Shown piece after piece: positions 4,702 through 14,710 of a stretch of DNA of 17,604 nucleotides. Within the stretch, counting starts at the first letter, position 1, and each line of letters opens with the position of its first letter. The notes under the pieces are model-generated. The model had not been told where the DNA came from, did no database searches, and saw only the letters and a list, made by a program, of their open reading frames with translations. The stretch lies in UHGV virus genome UHGV-0097368; one strand, written 5' to 3'. The translations under genes were made by a program, and so were the position numbers. Origin of the DNA: a virus.

Positions 4702-5228
4702 GCAGCCCTCCTGACACCCTGCCCGATCGCCATCAATGCCGCTTTGGATACGGTAGTAAACATCCGTCGAGGACTGATGAATGGTCGCCAAATCAGCAGC
4801 ATGGAGCCTTTGCTGTTTCCCTTCTTCTCCAGCCCCGTCGATGGTTCGATAAAATTAATCCGTCCATCAGTGATAATGCGAACTTCGTCAACACTCTCCA
4901 GAGCCTTGCTGAACCATCCGACAGACATATCCTCTGGCACAAGCATCACTACCGGCTGTCGCTGTTGTATGCACTGCTCAGCGGCTTTTTCCACCCACGG
5001 CCTGATATTGCTGTACGGTGGGTTATTCCAGATTGCACCGTGGCTTATCCACTCAGAATTTAGCGCGTCGTCAGCCTCAGTTAGCCAGTGAGCGCACAGA
5101 GCATTTTTGTCGCTCGCTGCCGAATCCAGCCAGAATCCAAACTCAATATCCAGTGCATCAAAAAGCCAAAGCGGCGTTTGCCAGCAGTCTCTAACTTCTT
5201 TTGGTGTTTCTGATTTATGCTTAATCAT
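4698..5228 (-). CDS. Phage Dam-family DNA N6-adenine methyltransferase (orphan)
   Basis: 176 aa with CWQTP...FDALD...F.LD.AA and a NPPY catalytic motif typical of the phage N6-adenine MTase family; ATGA overlaps on both sides. Confidence 0.8.
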   Translation of the reverse strand: MIKHKSETPKEVRDCWQTPLWLFDALDIEFGFWLDSAASDKNALCAHWLTEADDALNSEWISHGAIWNNPPYSNIRPWVEKAAEQCIQQRQPVVMLVPEDMSVGWFSKALESVDEVRIITDGRINFIEPSTGLEKKGNSKGSMLLIWRPFISPRRMFTTVSKAALMAIGQGVRRAA

Positions 5229-5752
5229 TCAACCCTCGCATATTGTCCGTGATATTTGTTGATAGCCTCACTGGCAACCAAACCAGCAAGCTCAAGATCT
5301 TCATAGAACCCAAAATGCAACCGGCCAAAATCTGTGCGCACTTGAACGGCCCATTTATTTTTTTGCTTGTTCCATAAAACATTTTTTATTCCAGAACGGC
5401 TATTGCACTTAGTTTTCTGATTTCGGCTGTTTGCTATCCGGCTTGCCTCCCTAAGATTTTTTGGGGAATTGTCCAGCCTGTTTCCGTTAATATGGTCAAT
5501 ATTTTTCAATGGCATTCTTTTGTTGTGCAGCGCAAAAACAACTACGTGAACAAACATCTGAATGCCTGCAAAACACACCTGTCTATACCCAGATCCATTT
5601 ATCGATGTTTTAATTTCATCTCCGGCCCGGTGGCTGTGGTTGGGGTGTTTTAGCGAGTCCTTTTTGTACCTGACTGTATCTCCGTCTAAATACAGATAAT
5701 CCTCAATAAGCCGATACCTATCTGACGCTGGCGTATTTGATTTGATAGTCAT
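5225..5752 (-). CDS. HNH homing endonuclease with C-terminal AP2-like DNA-binding domain
   Basis: 175 aa from MTIKSNTPASDRY...; HNH_3-type motif HVVVFALHNKRMPLKNIDHINGNRLDNSPKNLREASRIANSRN; C-terminal WNKQKNKWAVQVRTDFGRLHFGFYEDLELAG is AP2-like. Visibly more AT-rich than the flanks. Confidence 0.8.
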   Translation of the reverse strand: MTIKSNTPASDRYRLIEDYLYLDGDTVRYKKDSLKHPNHSHRAGDEIKTSINGSGYRQVCFAGIQMFVHVVVFALHNKRMPLKNIDHINGNRLDNSPKNLREASRIANSRNQKTKCNSRSGIKNVLWNKQKNKWAVQVRTDFGRLHFGFYEDLELAGLVASEAINKYHGQYARVE

Positions 5753-6189
5753 GCAGCCCGATCTCCCCATCTCGCTTTCCACTCCAGAGCCAGTCTCGCT
5801 TCGTCTGACCACTTAACGCCACGCTCTGTACCGAATGCCTGTATAAGCTCTAATAGATCCGCAAATTCGCTTACACGCATCCTGCTGGTTGACTGGCCTA
5901 TTACCACAAAGCCATTCCCGGCAAGGTTAGGAACAACATCCTGCTGCTTTAATGCTGCGGTAAACACACACTTCCAGCTTTCTGCATCCAGCCAGCGACC
6001 ATGCCATTCAACCTGACGAGAGACGTCACCAAGGCAAGCCCAAAGCTTTCGATTCTGGTCTAAGCTGCGGTTGCGTTCCTGAATGGTTACTACGATTGGT
6101 TTGGTTGGGTCTGGAAGGATTTGCTGTACTGCGTGAATAGCGTTTTGCTGATGTGCTGGAGATCGAATTTCAAAGGTTAGTTTTTTCAT
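5749..6189 (-). CDS. ninB: NinB (Orf-family recombination mediator)
   Basis: 146 aa from MKKLTFEIRSPAHQQNAIHAVQQILPDPTKPIVVTIQERN..., lambda NinB type. Confidence 0.9.
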   Translation of the reverse strand: MKKLTFEIRSPAHQQNAIHAVQQILPDPTKPIVVTIQERNRSLDQNRKLWACLGDVSRQVEWHGRWLDAESWKCVFTAALKQQDVVPNLAGNGFVVIGQSTSRMRVSEFADLLELIQAFGTERGVKWSDEARLALEWKARWGDRAA

Positions 6190-6266: not shown

Positions 6267-8147
6267 TTAATACTCCGTCACGTTTTCCTGTCGCCACGCC
6301 TCGTCATATTCCGATTTCGGCATATTGGCGATGTAGCTATAAGGCGATCCTGATTCAAGTTGCAGGAACTGGTGCGATTGCTCGTCAAGGAACAACGGGA
6401 CACCACCTTCCCAACCTTCGCCGTTACGTTGTTTTTCAAGCATCAAAACAGATGCCGGAGATGCCAGTAGCTGTTCGTCCTTCTCTGACATCTTTTCACC
6501 ACTCTGAACTCTCTGTAACGCTCTCTCGCGAGCCTTGTTACGCCAGATGATAAAAAGGTTGTCTGTCAGGTCTGTTATCGCTCCAGAGCCTTTTACGTCC
6601 ATTTTCCCGGTTGGTTTTTCTTCGCTATCTCCTTTTCTGGAGTGAGTAACGAGAATGACGTGGGAGTTTGTTTTGTTTTTGAAGTCACAAATCGAGTCAA
6701 CAAATGCTTTCTGCCCGTTATAGTCATCGTCACCTATGCCGCATTTCATCAGGCTGTCGATGATGAATAACTGGATGCCGTATCGGCGGCGAGCGTAGTC
6801 GAATATTTCGATCAGCCTGTCGGCTTTCGCCGTTCCAGTCAGGCCAAACACCCAAAGTCTTTCGTCATAAAATTTAAATGCAGAGTCAATTTCCAGCACT
6901 GGCGGCATCTTGCAGCACGTCGCCTGACGGGTAAGGCGCTTAAGGAGAATACCAGGCTTCAGCTCAAGTGACGCGATGCACGTCTTCACACCCTGACGCA
7001 TTGCCTCAAGTGCCATATGCCCGACAACCTCCGTTTTTCCGTGACCGTTCACACCATTGACCAGCGTCAACTCGGCCTCACGAAACTGGAATTTATCTGC
7101 CAGAGATTCCCACGGTGGATTAAACAGATACTGCTGCTTGCCGTAGAAAGCGTTGATAGTGTCCTGGTAAAACTCTCGCGCGCTGTAGAGTTCTTCAGGA
7201 TCAAAGTAGGATGCCGTGCCGATGTACTGCCAGATTTCATCCTCGGTAACACCGTTCATCAGGCATTCGTTGATGTCTTTGTACGGCAGAGTAACAAGAC
7301 GGCAACGATGTTCACCGAGTCGGCTTGCGATTTCCCCTGCGGCTTCACGACCAACATCATCAACGTCCATCGAGATGAATATTTCCTCAAACCTGTCGAG
7401 GTTGTGATACTCAAACTCAATCCACTGTTGCTTAGCGCCTTTCCCGCCACCAAACGGCACGGATAACGCCGAGATGCCGTATTGCGCATAGCTCATACAA
7501 TCAATTTCGCCTTCGCAAAGTACAACCGCCCTCACGCCAGCGTCCAGAGCCTGCCATCCGAACAGACAAGGTTCGCAATCACCTTCTGCCATAATGACTT
7601 TCTTCCCGTCCGGGCGCTCAGTGCTGATTCGCTTGACCTGCAACAACTCACCATCGCGTTTGTACGGAAGCACCAGTGCATCAAGTTCTCGTTCTCCATT
7701 CCACACCTTGCCGCTGACAACCTCGTAGCGCTTTACGACTTCTGGCGATATGCCACGCGATTGCAGGTACTCAAGATGGGATTCTGTTCTGGTAACGTAG
7801 CGGGCGATTTTCTTGCGATCAGGTCTGGAGAATTTTTTCTCACGTTTGGCATCGAAATGGTGATCGTCATCCTTGATACCGAGAAATGCTTTCGCTTCCT
7901 GCATAGCCTGATGCAGGTTAATTCCACGACATGCCATCCACAAATCAAGCATGTCACCGCCGTCTCCCTCAGCGAAATCAGCCCATTTTTTCTTGCCGCT
8001 AAGGTTGACCTTAAGGCTGTTTCCCTTGTCACCATTGACGTTACCGGCAACCCACTCATGCCCCTCTTTCTTGCCGTTTGGCAACAGGTGCGGAGCCACC
8101 CTGTCAACCTGCGCCCAAAGCAGGTCGCTAAGTTCACTTGGCGTCAT
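6267..8147 (-). CDS. Bifunctional DNA primase-helicase (Toprim primase plus DnaB/gp4-like RecA-fold helicase)
   Basis: 626 aa; Toprim-like VVLCEGEIDCMSYAQYG; Walker A GVNGHGKTEVV and Walker B LFIIDSL; N-terminal zinc-ribbon-like segment without the usual cysteines. Confidence 0.85.
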   Translation of the reverse strand: MTPSELSDLLWAQVDRVAPHLLPNGKKEGHEWVAGNVNGDKGNSLKVNLSGKKKWADFAEGDGGDMLDLWMACRGINLHQAMQEAKAFLGIKDDDHHFDAKREKKFSRPDRKKIARYVTRTESHLEYLQSRGISPEVVKRYEVVSGKVWNGERELDALVLPYKRDGELLQVKRISTERPDGKKVIMAEGDCEPCLFGWQALDAGVRAVVLCEGEIDCMSYAQYGISALSVPFGGGKGAKQQWIEFEYHNLDRFEEIFISMDVDDVGREAAGEIASRLGEHRCRLVTLPYKDINECLMNGVTEDEIWQYIGTASYFDPEELYSAREFYQDTINAFYGKQQYLFNPPWESLADKFQFREAELTLVNGVNGHGKTEVVGHMALEAMRQGVKTCIASLELKPGILLKRLTRQATCCKMPPVLEIDSAFKFYDERLWVFGLTGTAKADRLIEIFDYARRRYGIQLFIIDSLMKCGIGDDDYNGQKAFVDSICDFKNKTNSHVILVTHSRKGDSEEKPTGKMDVKGSGAITDLTDNLFIIWRNKARERALQRVQSGEKMSEKDEQLLASPASVLMLEKQRNGEGWEGGVPLFLDEQSHQFLQLESGSPYSYIANMPKSEYDEAWRQENVTEY

Positions 8148-8251
8148 GATTCCCTCAGATTGAGATTTTTAAACCAGAAATCGACAAACGAAATACTTAA
8201 CCAGCCGTGGTTATAACCAGCAACCAGTAGCGATTTGATTTTTGATTTCAT
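8144..8251 (-). CDS. Small coupled ORF (35 aa) between the initiator and primase-helicase genes
   Basis: Hand translation MKSKIKSLLVAGYNHGWLSISFVDFWFKNLNLRES; starts 4 nt after the O-like stop with AGGTG upstream; its TGA overlaps the helicase ATG (ATGA). No homolog recognised. Confidence 0.3.
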   Translation of the reverse strand: MKSKIKSLLVAGYNHGWLSISFVDFWFKNLNLRES

Positions 8252-8254
8252 GGT

Positions 8255-9115
8255 TCACCTGTCGAAAAACACGTAGCCAGTTTTCGATACGGTGATTGCG
8301 GATGATGGTTTGGATTGTGGTTGAATAGTTTCTGGCTTCTCGTCGTTCCAGCGTTGACCGTTCAGGTAGCTCGATGGTAACAACCTGTCGAATCCGAACT
8401 GCTTACCATTCCTGCATGCGATGTCTTCTGCCAGCATCGTGGCAAACTCGCTTGCCGTACCCCTGGTAGTTTTACGCCATTCCCTGAACTGTGTTCTGAA
8501 TGCCGAAGCTGCGTTTTTCTTCCCGGCTTTCCGCATGCCTGCACACCAGAATATTTCCTCGAATGCCTTGTCGGTTTCTTCGTGACGGTCATGTGATTTT
8601 TCACACTCCGTCCGAACACTTTCGGACATAGTGTTTTTATTATTTCTTTTTTCTTTTGTAATAGTTTCTTTTGTGTGTCCCTGTTTTGGTGACAGCGCTG
8701 TCACCGTTTTGGTGACACTTTTTGTCACCAATGCAGTGACATTATCACCAGAGTAGTGACACCCTTCTATTTGCCATTCCTCGATGTTCTTGTTAGGCCC
8801 GATTTGCTGGCCTTCGCGAAGGATAACCTTCATCGCGATAAGCTCATTCTTGGCCTTGTTTACCTTCTGTCTTGGCAGCCTGGTAATTTGAGCTAACTGA
8901 CTATCAGAGATGCGATCCATCTTTTTACCGTAGCCGTATGTTTTACGGCATATGGCGTGGGCAACCTTGCTCTGATTTTTCGTTAAATCTGCGCCGATAA
9001 GCTCTTCATACAGGGCATTTGCAAGACGGGTATAACCATCTTCAACTTCTGCCACACGACGCTCCACAGGCCGTTGTGAAGGCCTTAAATGTGTTACGGT
9101 TGCAAGATTACTCAT
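8255..9115 (-). CDS. Replication initiator, lambda O-like N-terminal iteron-binding domain with a different C-terminal domain
   Basis: 286 aa; N-terminal [56 protein letters not shown] resembles the lambda O N-domain; iterons lie inside the gene; AAGGAG upstream of the ATG. Confidence 0.8.
8630..8764 (-). repeat. Replication origin: four palindromic iterons (8688-8764) followed by an AT-rich tract (8630-8686) inside the O-like gene
   Basis: Plus strand reads GGTGACAGCGCTGTCACC, GGTGACACTTTTTGTCACC, GCAGTGACATTATCACC, GTAGTGACACCC at roughly 23-bp spacing, next to TTTTATTATTTCTTTTTTCTTTTGTAATAGTTTCTTTTG. Confidence 0.75.
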
Positions 9116-9254
9116 GACCTTTCTCCTTCTGCATCAGCTTCACTTTTTCCAACTCAGCCCGGAATCGACCAGGCTGCTTGAAGCTGGACAGGAAGCGATC
9201 ACGTAGTATGTGTTTGTGAATTTTGTCCTGGTAAGGACTGAGTTGTTTTGTCAT
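9108..9254 (-). CDS. Small basic ORF (48 aa) between cII and the initiator gene
   Basis: Hand translation [48 protein letters not shown]; GGGAG 5 nt upstream of the ATG; overlaps the O-like start by 8 nt. No homolog recognised. Confidence 0.35.
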
Positions 9255-9288: not shown

Positions 9289-9567
9289 TTAGGCCTCGAA
9301 GAATTCGCCGTTCTTCGGGGCTTTTTCTTTTGTCAGCATTCTGGCTACTTGCTTAGCCAGTTCCGCCAACTCCTCGTCTTCAACACCCCATTCCAGCACA
9401 GCCAGAAGCATGGCCATCTTTGGGATAAAGCTGTCTTTCCATCGCGAAATTTGCGATTCATTAATCCCTAACGCGTCGGCAACCTTTCGCTGACCACGTA
9501 CAGCAATTCGATTCAGGATGTTGCTTGTAATTGCATTCGCTTTCTTGCGAGTACTTGTAAGTTGCAT
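9289..9567 (-). CDS. cII: cII-like transcriptional activator (divergent from lambda cII)
   Basis: 92 aa from [61 protein letters not shown]; helix-turn-helix SQISRWK and the LLAVLEWG segment are shared with lambda cII; N- and C-termini differ. Confidence 0.85.
9294..9331 (+). terminator. Intrinsic terminator antisense to the 3' end of cII (oop-RNA-type terminator)
   Basis: Plus strand CCTCGAAGAA-TTCGCCG-TTCTTCGGGG followed by CTTTTTCTTTT. Position and orientation match the lambda oop terminator; the promoter could not be placed confidently. Confidence 0.6.
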
Positions 9568-9577
9568 ATGTAAGTAT
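9545..9577 (+). promoter_or_regulatory. Candidate PRE (cII-activated promoter): TTGC-N6-TTGT plus AAGTAT -10
   Basis: TTGCGAGTACTTGT at 9545-9558 and AAGTAT at 9572-9577 have the same spacing as the lambda TTGC-N6-TTGC / -10 arrangement; a perfect TTGCTTGTAATTGC also lies at 9521-9534. Confidence 0.5.
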
Positions 9578-9646
9578 TTCCTTAGATAACAATTGATTGA
9601 ATGTATGCAAATAAATGCATACACCATAGGTGTGGTTTAATTTGAT

Positions 9647-9678
9647 GCCCTTTTTCAGGGCTGGAATGTGTAAGAGCG
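9647..9678 (-). promoter_or_regulatory. nutR (boxA CGCTCTTAC, boxB GCCCTGAAAAAGGGC)
   Basis: Reverse complement of 9647-9678 gives CGCTCTTACACATTCCAGCCCTGAAAAAGGGC just downstream of cro. Confidence 0.85.
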
Positions 9679-9685
9679 GGGTTAT

Positions 9686-9895
<210 letters not shown>

Positions 9896-9910
9896 TTAGT
9901 ACATGCAACC

Positions 9911-9980
9911 ATTATCACCGCTAGAGGTAAAATAGTCAACACGCACGGTGTTAGATATTTATCCCTTGCGGTGATAGATT
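9911..9980. promoter_or_regulatory. Right operator OR1-OR2-OR3 with divergent promoters PR (minus) and PRM (plus)
   Basis: OR1 9913-9929 TATCACCGCTAGAGGTA, OR2 9937-9953 CAACACGCACGGTGTTA, OR3 9960-9976 TATCCCTTGCGGTGATA. PR -10 (rc GATAAT) 9911-9916 and -35 (rc TTGACT) 9934-9939; PRM -35 TAGATA 9952-9957 and -10 TAGATT 9975-9980. Confidence 0.9.
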
Positions 9981-9983
9981 TAA

Positions 9984-10700
<717 letters not shown>

Positions 10701-10812
10701 TCGGCAAGGTGTTCTGGTCGGCGCATAGCTGATAACAATTGAGCAAGAATCTTCATCGAATTAGGGGAATTTTCACTCCCCTCAGAACATAACATAGTAA
10801 ATGGATTGAATT

Positions 10813-11652
10813 ATGAAGAATGGTTTTTATGCGACTTACCGCAGCAAAAATAAAGGGAAAGATAAGCGCTCAATAAACCTGTCTGTTTTCCTTAATTCTC
10901 TGCTGGCTGATAATCATCACCTGCAGGTTGGCTCCAATTATTTGTATATTCATAAAATCGATGGAAAAACTTTTCTCTTTACCAAAACAAATGACAAGAG
11001 TCTGGTTCAGAAGATAAATCGCTCTAAAGCTTCAGTTGAAGATATTAAGAACAGCCTCGCAGATGACGAATCATTGGGATTCCCATCTTTTTTGTTTGTT
11101 GAAGGCGACACCATTGGTTTTGCCAGAACTGTTTTCGGGCCGACCACATCCGATCTGACAGATTTTTTAATCGGGAAAGGAATGTCATTAAGCAGTGGAG
11201 AGCGCGTTCAGATAGAGCCACTGATGAGGGGAACCACCAAAGACGATGTTATGCATATGCATTTCATCGGCCGAACAACGGTGAAGGTAGAAGCCAAGCT
11301 ACCTGTATTTGGCGATATATTAAAGGTCTTAGGGGCAACAGATATTGAAGGGGAGCTTTTTGACTCATTGGATATAGTCATTAAGCCAAAATTTAAAAGG
11401 GATATAAAAAAGGTTGCCAAGGATATTATTTTTAACCCGTCACCTCAATTTTCAGACATTAGCCTGCGGGCAAAAGATGAGGCCGGAGATATTTTAACAG
11501 AACATTATCTATCAGAAAAAGGCCATCTCTCAGCGCCTCTGAACAAGGTCACCAATGCTGAGATAGCTGAAGAGATGGCATATTGCTACGCAAGAATGAA
11601 AAGTGATATACTGGAATGTTTTAAAAGGCAGGTGGGCAAAGTTAAGGATTAA
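10813..11652 (+). CDS. rexA: RexA (Rex exclusion system sensor component)
   Basis: 279 aa MKNGFYATYRSKNKGKDKRSINLSVFLNSLLADNHHLQ..., lambda RexA. Confidence 0.95.
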   Translation: MKNGFYATYRSKNKGKDKRSINLSVFLNSLLADNHHLQVGSNYLYIHKIDGKTFLFTKTNDKSLVQKINRSKASVEDIKNSLADDESLGFPSFLFVEGDTIGFARTVFGPTTSDLTDFLIGKGMSLSSGERVQIEPLMRGTTKDDVMHMHFIGRTTVKVEAKLPVFGDILKVLGATDIEGELFDSLDIVIKPKFKRDIKKVAKDIIFNPSPQFSDISLRAKDEAGDILTEHYLSEKGHLSAPLNKVTNAEIAEEMAYCYARMKSDILECFKRQVGKVKD

Positions 11653-11667
11653 TTATCAGGAGTAATT

Positions 11668-12102
11668 ATGCGGAACAGAATCATGCCTGGTGTTTACATA
11701 GTAATAATTCCTTACGTTATCGTAAGCATTTGCTATCTCCTTTTCCGCCACTACATTCCTGGTGTTTCTTTTTCAGCTCATAGAGATGGTCTTGGGGCGA
11801 CATTGTCATCATATGCAGGAACCATGATTGCAATCCTGATTGCTGCCTTGACGTTTCTAATCGGAAGCAGAACGCGCCGACTGGCCAAGATTAGAGAGTA
11901 TGGGTATATGACATCGGTAGTTATTGTCTATGCCCTTAGTTTTGTTGAGCTTGGAGCTTTGTTTTTCTGCGGGTTATTGCTTCTTTCCAGCATAAGCGGC
12001 TACATGATACCCACTATCGCCATCGGCATTGCCTCTGCATCGTTCATTCATATATGCATCCTTGTTTTCCAACTATATAATTTGACCAGAGAACAAGAAT
12101 AA
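11668..12102 (+). CDS. rexB: RexB (Rex exclusion system membrane component)
   Basis: 144 aa hydrophobic MRNRIMPGVYIVIIPYVIVSICYLLFRHY..., lambda RexB. Confidence 0.95.
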   Translation: MRNRIMPGVYIVIIPYVIVSICYLLFRHYIPGVSFSAHRDGLGATLSSYAGTMIAILIAALTFLIGSRTRRLAKIREYGYMTSVVIVYALSFVELGALFFCGLLLLSSISGYMIPTIAIGIASASFIHICILVFQLYNLTREQE

Positions 12103-12128
12103 CCCGGCCTCAGCGCCGGGTTTTCTTT
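12103..12128 (+). terminator. Intrinsic terminator after rexB (tIMM)
   Basis: CCCGGC-CTCAGC-GCCGGG followed by TTTTCTTT immediately after the rexB stop. Confidence 0.8.
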
Positions 12129-12275
12129 GCCTCACGATCGCCCCCAAAACACATAACCAATTGTATTTATTGAAAAATAAATAGATACAACTCACTAAAC
12201 ATAGCAATTCAGATCCCTCACCTACCAAACAATGCCCCCCTGCAAAAAATAAATTCATATAAAAAACATACAGAT

Positions 12276-12337
12276 AACCATCTGCGGTGATAAATTATCT
12301 CTGGCGGTGTTGACATAAATACCACTGGCGGTGATAC
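12276..12337 (+). promoter_or_regulatory. Left operator OL3-OL2-OL1 and promoter PL
   Basis: OL3 AACCATCTGCGGTGATA 12276-12292, OL2 TATCTCTGGCGGTGTTG 12296-12312, OL1 TACCACTGGCGGTGATA 12320-12336; -35 TTGACA 12310-12315; -10 GATACT 12332-12337. Confidence 0.92.
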
Positions 12338-12378
12338 TGAGCACATCAGCAGGACGCACTGACCACCATTGAAGGTGA

Positions 12379-12409
12379 GGTTCTTAAAAATTAAGCCCTG
12401 AAGAAGGGC
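12379..12409 (+). promoter_or_regulatory. nutL (boxB GCCCTGAAGAAGGGC; boxA position reads GGTTCTTAAAAATTAA)
   Basis: boxB hairpin at 12395-12409 is canonical; the preceding boxA-position sequence deviates from the CGCTCTT(T)A consensus at two bases. Confidence 0.8.
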
Positions 12410-12677
12410 AGCATTCAAAGCAGAAGGCTTTGGGGTGTGGTGAAGCCAGCTAGTCACTGGCAAGTGCTTACCTACTGTTGAGCGGTGAAGCGCTCCCAAC
12501 GCTAGCAATAGCGTGGACGAGATGGGGAGCCGCGGGCGATAAGGCCGCCATAACGCGCACGTTGTCGCATGGAAAAATCGCTGGGGTGCCGGTTATCCCC
12601 CTCCGAATGAGACTCAACAAGCTGGAGCTAGACTACCAGCCACCACACCACCAAAGCTAACTGACAGGAGAATCCAG

Positions 12678-13004
12678 ATGGATGCACAAACACGCCGCCG
12701 CGAACGTCGCGCAGAGAAACAGGCTCAATGGAAAGCAGCAAATCCCCTGTTGGTTGGGGTAAGCGCAAAACCAGTTAACCGCCCTATTCTCTCGCTGAAT
12801 CGCAAACCGAAATCACGAGTAGAAAGCGCACTGAATCCGATAGACCTTACGGTGCTGGCTGAATACCACGAACAGATTGAAAGCAACCTGCAACGTATTG
12901 AACGCAAGAATCAGCGCACATGGTACAGCAAGCCACGCAGTGAAATGGGTGTGACTTGTGTTGGTCGCCAGAAAATGAAATTAGGCAGCAAACCACTTAT
13001 TTGA
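12678..13004 (+). CDS. N: Antiterminator N (lambda-type, variant C-terminal region)
   Basis: 108 aa MDAQTRRRERRAEKQAQWKAANPLLVGVSAKPVNRPILSLNRKPKSRVESALNPIDLTVLAEYH...; Arg-rich boxB-binding motif at the N-terminus; the last ~25 residues differ from lambda N as I recall it. Confidence 0.92.
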   Translation: MDAQTRRRERRAEKQAQWKAANPLLVGVSAKPVNRPILSLNRKPKSRVESALNPIDLTVLAEYHEQIESNLQRIERKNQRTWYSKPRSEMGVTCVGRQKMKLGSKPLI

Positions 13005-14015: not shown

Positions 14016-14104
14016 AGGTGTTCGCGTATTTTTAAATGCGGCAAAGACTGAAGTATTAAACCAGCGTTATTTCCTTGGGCCATGTCCATTCTGAGAACAA
14101 TCAT

Positions 14105-14710
14105 ATGAGCAAAGAATTTTACGCAAGACTGGCAGCTATTCAGGAGAATCTGAACGCGCCAAAGAATCAGTACAACTCATTCGGTAAATATAAATACAGA
14201 AGCTGCGAAGACATTCTTGAAGGCGTTAAGCCGTTACTGAATGGCCTGTTTTTATCAATCAGCGATGAAGTTGTGTTGATTGGTGATCGGTATTATGTGA
14301 AAGCCACGGCAACTATTACCGATGGCGAAAACAGTCATACGGCAACCGCTCTTGCACGAGAGGAAGAAAGCAAGAAAGGAATGGATTCTGCACAAGTTAC
14401 GGGAGCTACAAGCTCTTATGCACGCAAGTATTGCCTCAATGGTTTGTTCGGCATTGATGATGCGAAAGATGCAGATACCGACGAGCATAAACATCAGCAG
14501 AACGCAGCAGCAAAGCAGTCAAAACCATCACCTACACCTGAACAGGTTCTAAAAGCATTCACTGACGCAGCAATGCATAAAAACACCGTGGAAGAGCTTA
14601 AACAGGCTTTCGCCAAAGCGTGGAAGATGCTCGAAGGAACACCGGAGCAGCACAAAGCGCAGGACGTTTACAACATCAGACGAGACGAATTAGAAGGAGC
14701 GGCTGCTTAA
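14105..14710 (+). CDS. erf: Erf-family single-strand annealing recombinase (P22 Erf-like)
   Basis: MSKEFYARLAAIQENLNAPKNQYNSFGKYKYRSCEDILEGVKPLLNGLFLSISDEVVLIGDRYYVKATATITDGENSHTA is characteristic of the Erf family; the upstream TTG-initiated extension in the ORF track is unlikely to be used. Confidence 0.85.
   Translation: MSKEFYARLAAIQENLNAPKNQYNSFGKYKYRSCEDILEGVKPLLNGLFLSISDEVVLIGDRYYVKATATITDGENSHTATALAREEESKKGMDSAQVTGATSSYARKYCLNGLFGIDDAKDADTDEHKHQQNAAAKQSKPSPTPEQVLKAFTDAAMHKNTVEELKQAFAKAWKMLEGTPEQHKAQDVYNIRRDELEGAAA

Follow-up and report, generated by a model that had tools for sequence, protein, structure and literature searches.

Within the O-like initiator gene of the virus genome UHGV-0097368 lies a region that is very probably a lambda-style origin of replication, embedded in the gene of its own initiator, belonging to a distinct specificity type and apparently built from two modules. 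The window (the whole stretch of DNA analysed, 17,604 nucleotides) comes from a lambdoid phage or prophage, whose early region it represents; the immunity region is ~98% lambda. Its plus strand carries N (12678–13004), rexB, rexA and cI (9987–10700). Among the genes assigned to the minus strand, cro (9686–9886) comes first in transcription order, followed by cII (9289–9627), a DUF2740 open reading frame (9108–9254) that adjoins O upstream, the O-like initiator gene (8255–9115; 286 amino acids), a gene for a 626-amino-acid Toprim and DnaB-like primase-helicase (6267–8147) and then, in this order, NinB, an HNH open reading frame, Dam, NinG, a phosphatase and Q. The 626-amino-acid protein matches the Pfam families Toprim_2, AAA_25 and DnaB_C as well as PHROG 239, DNA primase/helicase (E = 1e-170). 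The O gene as a whole is common to the phages Sf101 (99.9% nucleotide identity), mEp043 (99.2%), SEN22 (98.6%) and vB_EcoP-720R6, at 98.6–99.9%.

The array comprises four tandem 19-bp dyads on the minus strand, with the consensus TGTCACC-AAAAC-GGTGACA and a constant 7-nt interval (N7) between the 6-nt arms; the repeat unit is TGTCAC-N7-GTGACA. ITN1 (8743–8761, TGTCACTACTCTGGTGATA) begins in codon phase 1 and encodes CHYSGDN; its right arm is imperfect, with one mismatch (GTGATA), and relatives carry a better dyad, TGTCACCAAAACGGTGTCA. ITN2 (8723–8741, TGTCACTGCATTGGTGACA; codon phase 3) encodes (N)VTALVT and has two perfect arms, ITN3 (8699–8717, TGTCACCAAAACGGTGACA; codon phase 3) encodes (S)VTKTVT and is a perfect 7+5+7 dyad identical to the family consensus, and ITN4 (8676–8694, TGTCACCAAAACAGGGACA; codon phase 2) encodes (L)SPKQGH and ends in an imperfect right arm that is a lambda-like hybrid. 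From start to start, the units are separated by 20 bp (ITN1 to ITN2), 24 bp (ITN2 to ITN3) and 23 bp (ITN3 to ITN4), and together they code for the O linker (amino acids 119–147) that joins the Phage_rep_O N-domain to the C-terminal domain. A search of the whole window for TGTCAC-N7-GTGACA with up to two mismatches returned the four tandem matches within 8676–8761 and one stray match. Only 0.65 matches were expected in the window and five were reached in none of 200 shuffles; four tandem matches against this expectation mark the repeats as non-random. The same 19-bp register was picked independently by a repeat finder (families D1 and D2).

A preliminary description of this DNA had listed four repeats at intervals of roughly 23 bp, followed along transcription by an AT-rich tract. 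Its four strings, GGTGACAGCGCTGTCACC (8688–8705), GGTGACACTTTTTGTCACC (8711–8729), GCAGTGACATTATCACC (8734–8750) and GTAGTGACACCC (8754–8765), are all present, and GTGACA begins at 8689, 8712, 8736 and 8756, which are four of the five copies in the 17.6-kb window; the intervals are 23, 24 and 20 bp. The AT-rich tract was borne out as well: GC content falls to 22.5% over 8620–8679, compared with 46% for the window. We place the tract, a presumed DNA unwinding element, at 8636–8675 on the minus strand (CACAAAAGAAACTATTACAAAAGAAAAAAGAAATAATAAAAA), immediately 3′ of the last iteron in the direction of transcription; it lies downstream of the iterons because the O gene is on the minus strand. Directly after it comes an imperfect 14+14 palindrome (8603–8634, ACACTATGTCCGAA agtg TTCGGACGGAGTGT), detected as inverted repeat I5 with 86% complementarity.

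The likeness to the lambda origin, which the preliminary description had proposed from the general layout, extends to fine detail. The annotated lambda iterons begin at 39034, 39054, 39078 and 39101, with the same 20/24/23 spacing as the window units (first bases at 8761, 8741, 8717 and 8694), in both O genes the units begin in codon phases 1, 3, 3 and 2, and alignment with MAFFT placed each window unit onto one lambda iteron, ITN1 onto lambda ITN1 and so on through ITN4. Both origins have four dyad iterons of 18–19 bp inside the O gene with an AAAAC core. From CAAAACAGGG onwards the window is nearly identical to lambda ITN4 and the adjoining AT tract (from mid-ITN4, CAAAACAGGGACACACAAAAGAAACTATTACAAAAGAAAAAAGAAA in the window and CAAAACAGGGGGACACAAAAGACACTATTACAAAAGAAAAAAGAAA in lambda), the AT tract being almost base for base that of lambda, CACAAAAGAnACTATTACAAAAGAAAAAAGAAA; the palindrome at 8634–8603 occupies the place of GTCAGAGAATTC..GAATCCTCTGAC in lambda. 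The claim that the repeat is unlike that of lambda therefore holds for the arms, which are TGTCACC/GGTGACA in the window and ATCCCTC/GAGGGAT in lambda, and fails where the two origins agree, namely in the AAAAC core, the ITN4 right arm and the AT tract. The proteins differ in a corresponding way: the Phage_rep_O N-domain of the window is 53% identical to that of lambda O, the predicted recognition helix starts with RQKVNK instead of VKRCNE, and the C-terminal domain is unrelated to that of lambda and is accompanied by a primase-helicase where lambda has P. The window thus shows the features of a lambda-type O-family origin (a Phage_rep_O domain, at least four tandem ~19-bp dyads, an adjoining AT tract and DNA-level selection), and it has neither the ATCCCTC/GAGGGAT arms nor the P-type helicase loader and lambda-type O C-domain of the rep-lambda specificity group, to which lambda, 21, 434, the ES18 N-domain and the Stx phages belong (for Stx-phage O, see PMC7466680). 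Because different arms go together with a distinct N-domain that has a different helix start, a distinct initiator specificity type, as the preliminary description had suggested, is the best reading.

The iteron arms are under purifying selection at the DNA level. Across the four units the motif encodes Cys-His, Val-Thr, Val-Thr and Ser-Pro; since it is translated in three frames, the repeat resides in the DNA and not in the peptide. When IMG/VR was scanned for two adjacent units, at least 120 contigs were found and every match lay inside an O homologue (120 of 120), with N-domains 55–100% identical to that of the window. Loci were also selected by N-domain similarity alone (66–100% identity), which avoids ascertainment by the motif, and 78 of these 80 carried TGTCAC-N7-GTGACA iterons. 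Among 60 unique protein-selected loci, a set to which a light filter on the ITN1 and ITN2 left arms had been applied, with the right arms, ITN3 and ITN4 outside the filter, pairwise nucleotide identity was 0.985 for left arms and 0.918 for right arms, compared with 0.69 in the cores and 0.67 in the spacers. Within the arms, wobble positions reached 1.00 and 0.89 in the same loci, compared with 0.43 for four-fold sites at invariant N-domain residues and 0.51 for all third positions; the AT tract averaged 0.77. Relatives have four, five or six units at start-to-start distances of 18–29 bp, and the gap between units ranges from nothing to ~10 nt with changing sequence, whereas the internal N7 never varies.

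These data bear on how the repeats should be read. The preliminary description had taken GGTGACA..TGTCACC dyads as its unit. If that register were functional, O or another dimeric protein would bind GGTGACA-N4/5-TGTCACC, and TGTCAC-N7-GTGACA would be a by-product of tandem palindromes. Arrays of tandem palindromes are inherently ambiguous in register, and GGTGACAGCGCTGTCACC and GGTGACACTTTTTGTCACC are indeed perfect 7+7 dyads, yet the gaps between the arms in that register are 4, 5 and 1 nt, the fourth repeat is a half-site without a partner arm, and a fixed-spacing search (GTGACA-N4-TGTCAC, mismatches allowed) recovered just one copy in the region. Each of the repeats so defined runs from a right arm across the spacer into the left arm of the following iteron: they are junctions between adjacent iterons, half a unit out of register. 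The variation of inter-unit distance (18–29 bp) and sequence in relatives, with an invariant N7 in the 19-bp unit, settles the register, and only the 19-bp unit fits the annotated positions, spacing and codon phases of the lambda iterons. We therefore consider the shifted register very unlikely; oligonucleotides for mobility-shift assays designed on it would cut every predicted binding site in two.

An even less plausible reading, to which we give almost no credence, is that the 19-bp units merely reflect the coding of a repetitive linker peptide (VT-x-x-VT) and play no role as DNA. The encoded peptide does appear repetitive, but the motif occurs in three frames (CH, VT/VT and SP), four-fold degenerate positions inside the arms are 89–100% conserved compared with 43% elsewhere in the O gene, and the segment that the repeats encode is predicted to be disordered. 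The same arrangement is found in lambda, where the iterons were shown to bind O by Tsurimoto and Matsubara (1981), as cited in PMC8022706. It is also highly improbable, somewhat less so than the coding explanation, that the dyads are operators for another regulator, either a CRP/FNR-kind winged helix of host or phage or the DUF2740 protein, with the origin elsewhere. The CRP consensus is TGTGA-N6-TCACA. The GTGA/TCAC arms resemble its half-sites, and together with Foldseek matches to CRP they raised the idea of a CRP site; it was ruled out on spacing and orientation, the GTGA-to-TCAC distance being 8–9 nt in the shifted register and the arm orientation being opposite in the 19-bp register. The DUF2740 open reading frame lies directly upstream of O, but DUF2740/orf48 homologues also stand beside P22- and HK97-type O genes, which have different iterons. 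Co-variation of the arms with the O recognition helix, and a position homologous to the lambda origin, likewise argue against another regulator.

The O N-terminal domain (8762–9115, minus strand; amino acids 1–118) is a predicted winged helix. It matches Pfam Phage_rep_O (PF04492) over amino acids 20–114 (E = 1.1e-37; 128.8 bits against a cut-off of 28.7), and the window O also matches PHROG families of the kind 'replication initiation O-like'. An AF2 model built on a 35-sequence alignment has helices at 46–60, 71–78 and 82–94 and a beta hairpin, the putative wing, at 98–107, with pLDDT values of 80–93 over approximately amino acids 40–110 and a mean of 65; the iteron-encoded residues 119–151 are predicted to be disordered. 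A single-sequence AF2 model of amino acids 1–158 had a pLDDT of 44.5 and was unusable. In a Foldseek comparison with the PDB, the model matched winged-helix domains alone (of the CRP, MarR and GntR kinds), weakly (best E = 0.013), which supports the fold class only. Sequence searches of the PDB with the protein and a 31-sequence profile gave no significant O-family structure, the best match being the winged-helix regulator 2d1h (E = 0.77), so that the assignment of residues 82–94 as the predicted recognition helix rests on the AF2 model and the weak Foldseek matches. At the start of this helix, the stretch L80-P-R-Q-K-V-N86 does not vary among the 72 unique TGTCAC-type N-domains. In protein sequence, the window N-domain is 100% identical to those of Sf101, mEp043, SEN22, vB_EcoP-720R6 and PhiR12_1–5, with iterons 98–100% identical at the nucleotide level, and it shares both the helix stretch and TGTCAC-N7-GTGACA with the TGTCAC O-iteron type that we define here on Sf101, mEp043 and SEN22.

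O-type proteins of lambda, P22 and L bind different iterons inside their own genes (PMC8022706). A comparison across such origins, which the preliminary description had recommended, extends this diversity and sets the window apart from each of the types compared. P22 gene 18, phi80 gp15, HK97/HK446, PhiR26_1 and Gifsy-1 all have, like the window, an initiator gene that contains tandem dyads of ~17–19 bp with A-rich cores, in varying unit number; HK022 O instead shows direct repeats, in an unrelated pattern. The iteron is ATCCCTC-AAAAC-GAGGGAT in lambda, ES18 and 21, so that phage 21 is lambda-type and differs from TGTCACC. It is ATCCCCG-AAAAC-GGGGAT in Gifsy-1, TTCCCG-AAAAC-GGGAA in phi80 (the annotated gp15 sites), TTTACC-AGATC-GGTAAA in P22, TTACCY-GAATC-RGGTAA in PhiR26_1 and TTAGCC-AAGTC-GGCTAA in the HK446/HK97 type; the phi80 and P22 arms, TTCCCG and TTTACC, likewise differ from TGTCAC. 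The nearest distinct type is that of Erwinia phage phiEt88 and the IMG/VR loci L205 and L206, with the iteron TGTTACC-AAAAC-GGTAACA, the same layout and core as the window and an N-domain 59–68% identical to that of the window; each arm differs by a single base (TGTTAC/TGTTCC for TGTCAC), and the helix start changes from LPRQKVNK to ISR(S/P)KANI. Downstream of the iterons, the AT-tract block ACACAAAAGA is invariant in six iteron types; the origins of P22, HK97/HK446 and PhiR26_1 run into it, with phi80 (ACACCCAATACAAGA) and Gifsy-1 (ACACCAAAGA) as exceptions.

Across these types, the arm sequence changes in step with the first residues of the predicted recognition helix. RQKVN in the window type goes with TGTCAC; R(S/P)KAN (aligned stretch ISR(S/P)KAN) in phiEt88, L205 and L206 with TGTTAC/TGTTCC; VKRCN (LPVKRCN in lambda) in lambda and ES18 with TCCCTC; VKHVS (LKVKHVS) in Gifsy-1 with TCCCCG; DTHVS (LSDTHVS) in phi80 with TTCCCG; PTKCS (MAPTKCS) in P22 with TTTACC; PHKCS (ILPHKCS) in PhiR26_1 with TTACCY; and HTHVC (IHHTHVC) in HK446 with TTAGCC. 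Similar helices thus accompany similar arms, a correlation that is coherent with the N-domain reading the arms and that covers only about nine types confounded by phylogeny. The best reading of these sequences is that the arms and the N-domain belong to a single specificity module, which differs from those of lambda, phi80, P22, HK97 and Gifsy-1, and the residues at the helix start are candidate specificity determinants open to mutagenesis. As a tentative extension, which we consider possible without favouring it, the O-family winged helix and the iteron arms might constitute a simple specificity code, in which the first five or six helix residues (amino acids 81–87) would set the 6–7-bp arm, the TGTCAC (LPRQKVNK) and TGTTAC (ISR[S/P]KANI) types would represent a minimal natural specificity switch, and the ITN4 right arm with the AT tract would serve as a universal joint between modules. 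If this were true, a handful of substitutions would suffice to re-target an origin, lambda-type origin/initiator pairs could be made orthogonal by design, incompatibility between co-resident prophages could be predicted, and any specificity module could recombine with any helicase-recruitment module via the shared joint.

The C-terminal part of O has a different set of relatives. The C-terminal domain (8255–8635, minus strand; amino acids 161–286), a putative partner-specific module, is 93–95% identical at the nucleotide level to the O genes of ES18, epsilon34 and g341c, and the identity at this level covers window positions 8255–8688, that is, the C-domain, the AT tract and half of ITN4. These phages have the O C-domain, the distal AT tract and the palindrome in common with the window, as well as a primase-helicase partner (ES18 gp61, a homologue of the 626-amino-acid protein that is annotated as a putative primase/helicase). 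The N-domains of these phages are lambda-type, those of ES18 and g341c being only 54.5–55.5% identical to that of the window; the ES18 iterons are likewise of the lambda type (ATCCCTCAAAATGAGGGA), and the ES18 record marks a 'rep_origin similar to lambda ori'; the mosaic breakpoint with ES18 and epsilon34 falls at 8688, within ITN4. In the opposite arrangement, window positions 8643–9115 (N-domain and iterons) are 99.8% identical to the PhiR12 phages, which continue into a lambda-type C-domain, P and ren; PhiR12_1 is a natural chimera in which a window-type N-domain and iterons are joined to the lambda C-domain, P and ren. The mosaic breakpoints lie in or beside the conserved AT tract.

The C-domain co-varies with the partner gene: in every motif-selected locus in which both were detected, the type of C-domain predicts the gene downstream. 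The window-type C-domain was followed by a primase-helicase in 40 loci (all those with a partner detected), the P22 type by DnaB-like gp12 in 19, the lambda type by P in 16 and a further type by a DnaC-like protein in nine. The palindrome at 8603–8634 travels with the C-terminal module and also occurs in ES18. These comparisons suggest that the AT tract, the C-domain and the partner gene make up a second, exchangeable module, with the recombination joint in ITN4 and the AT tract. They provide a quantitative illustration of lambdoid initiators as two-module proteins, in which an N-domain comes with its iterons and a C-domain with its helicase partner.

In lambda, the iterons are bound by O dimers, which form an O-some; this deforms the DNA, the AT tract opens and the helicase is brought in by the O C-domain, replication using P and host DnaB. 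By homology, we propose that an O dimer would bind each iteron of the window through its N-terminal winged helix, with R82-Q83-K84-V85-N86 at the start of the recognition helix reading the 6–7-bp arms. Four O dimers might then assemble into an O-some, bend the DNA and destabilise the AT tract (8675–8636), after which the O C-domain would recruit the phage Toprim/DnaB-like primase-helicase (6267–8147) in place of P and DnaB. The right arms of ITN1 and ITN4 being imperfect, occupancy of all four sites is assumed in this scheme. Binding by O, opening of the AT tract, recruitment of the helicase and activity as an origin are thus all attributed to the region by analogy with lambda. The plasmid initiators RepA, RepE and pi likewise pair a winged helix with iterons in tandem next to an AT-rich unwinding element; on plasmids, the iterons are direct repeats to which monomers bind, are located outside the rep gene and have a further role in copy-number control. 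We use the resemblance of these systems to the window origin as a working analogy only, drawn from general features.

That lambdoid O-type initiators have differing iterons in their own genes was known already; the TGTCACC/GGTGACA arm sequence appears to be new. The two GenBank records inspected, those of Sf101 and mEp043, give 'replication protein O' only and carry neither a rep_origin nor an iteron feature, an origin is not discussed in the Sf101 paper, and a literature search on the iteron string and on Sf101, mEp043, SEN22 and PhiR12 returned no description of a TGTCACC-AAAAC-GGTGACA origin. The understanding of how lambda-type origins work is unchanged and the practical value is modest. 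Annotation gains the corrected iteron unit and coordinates for a common origin type, and the corrected register and the candidate specificity residues are the useful outputs. Homologues occur across the Enterobacterales, in prophages of Klebsiella, Cronobacter, Citrobacter, Serratia, Proteus, Providencia, Morganella, Yersinia, Photorhabdus and Xenorhabdus, and in the GenBank phages Sf101, mEp043, SEN22, vB_EcoP-720R6, PhiR12_1–5 and Proteus phage vB_BPM-V3; within E. coli, this iteron type is present in 175 of 5,426 complete genomes.

The window is a natural 'imm-lambda, rep-other' hybrid, in which a lambda immunity region is joined to a non-lambda replication module. The immunity region (9289-13004), which comprises N, rexB, rexA, cI, cro and cII, is approximately 98% identical to that of lambda, and the replication module (6267-9254) consists of a DUF2740 ORF, an Sf101-type O gene and the primase-helicase gene. 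The early-left region encodes an ERF-family single-strand annealing protein (14075-14710, + strand), and therefore the recombination module, too, does not look like that of lambda.

Comparison of the window with Stx2 phages, PhiR12 and ES18/epsilon34 placed the mosaic breakpoints at approximately 8640, 8643 and 8688. Because all of these positions fall within the fourth iteron, ITN4 (8676-8694), and the adjoining AT tract (8636-8675), the AT tract appears to be a recombination joint between the specificity module, formed by the O N-domain and the iterons, and the partner module. The right arm of ITN4, AGGGACA, is a lambda-like hybrid, and both this arm and ACACAAAAGA of the AT tract are kept in the majority of the iteron types that were compared. 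Immediately beyond the AT tract lies an inverted repeat that is specific to the type of O C-terminal module: ACACTATGTCCGAA..TTCGGACGGAGTGT in the window (8603-8634) and ES18, GTCAGAGAATTC..GAATCCTCTGAC in lambda, and CCCCCT..AGGGGG in P22 and HK97. The positions compared for these repeats included approximately 570-600 in locus L001 and approximately 1375-1400 in locus L125.

Some relatives (loci L010, L016, L040, L043, L045, L059, L082 and L122, and also L186, L189 and L199-L201) contain 5 or 6 units that have the TGTCAC-type arms of the window but in which the core CACGGTA replaces CAAAACG; a DnaC-like gene often lies downstream in these relatives. This arrangement resembles that of Stx phages, whose origins have six iterons. 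In HK022, by contrast, the gene for the 'gene O protein' (L210, 2400-2520) has no short dyad iterons and instead contains two copies, approximately 70 bp apart, of a repeat of a quite different kind, CAGCAGATTACCAGCAAATTACCAC.

Outside the iteron array, two more TGTCACC heptamers occur at 7952 and 8027, 75 bp apart, within the 5′-terminal part of the primase-helicase gene, and one of them sits in TGTCACCATTGACGTTACC, which matches the iteron pattern with 2 mismatches. This pair is probably due to chance. Last, an ORF of 195 aa located between NinB and Dam (5225-5812, − strand) encodes an HNH_3 endonuclease domain (E = 5.5e-11). Sf101 has an equally long ORF in the corresponding place, which its record labels 'DNA methylase'.
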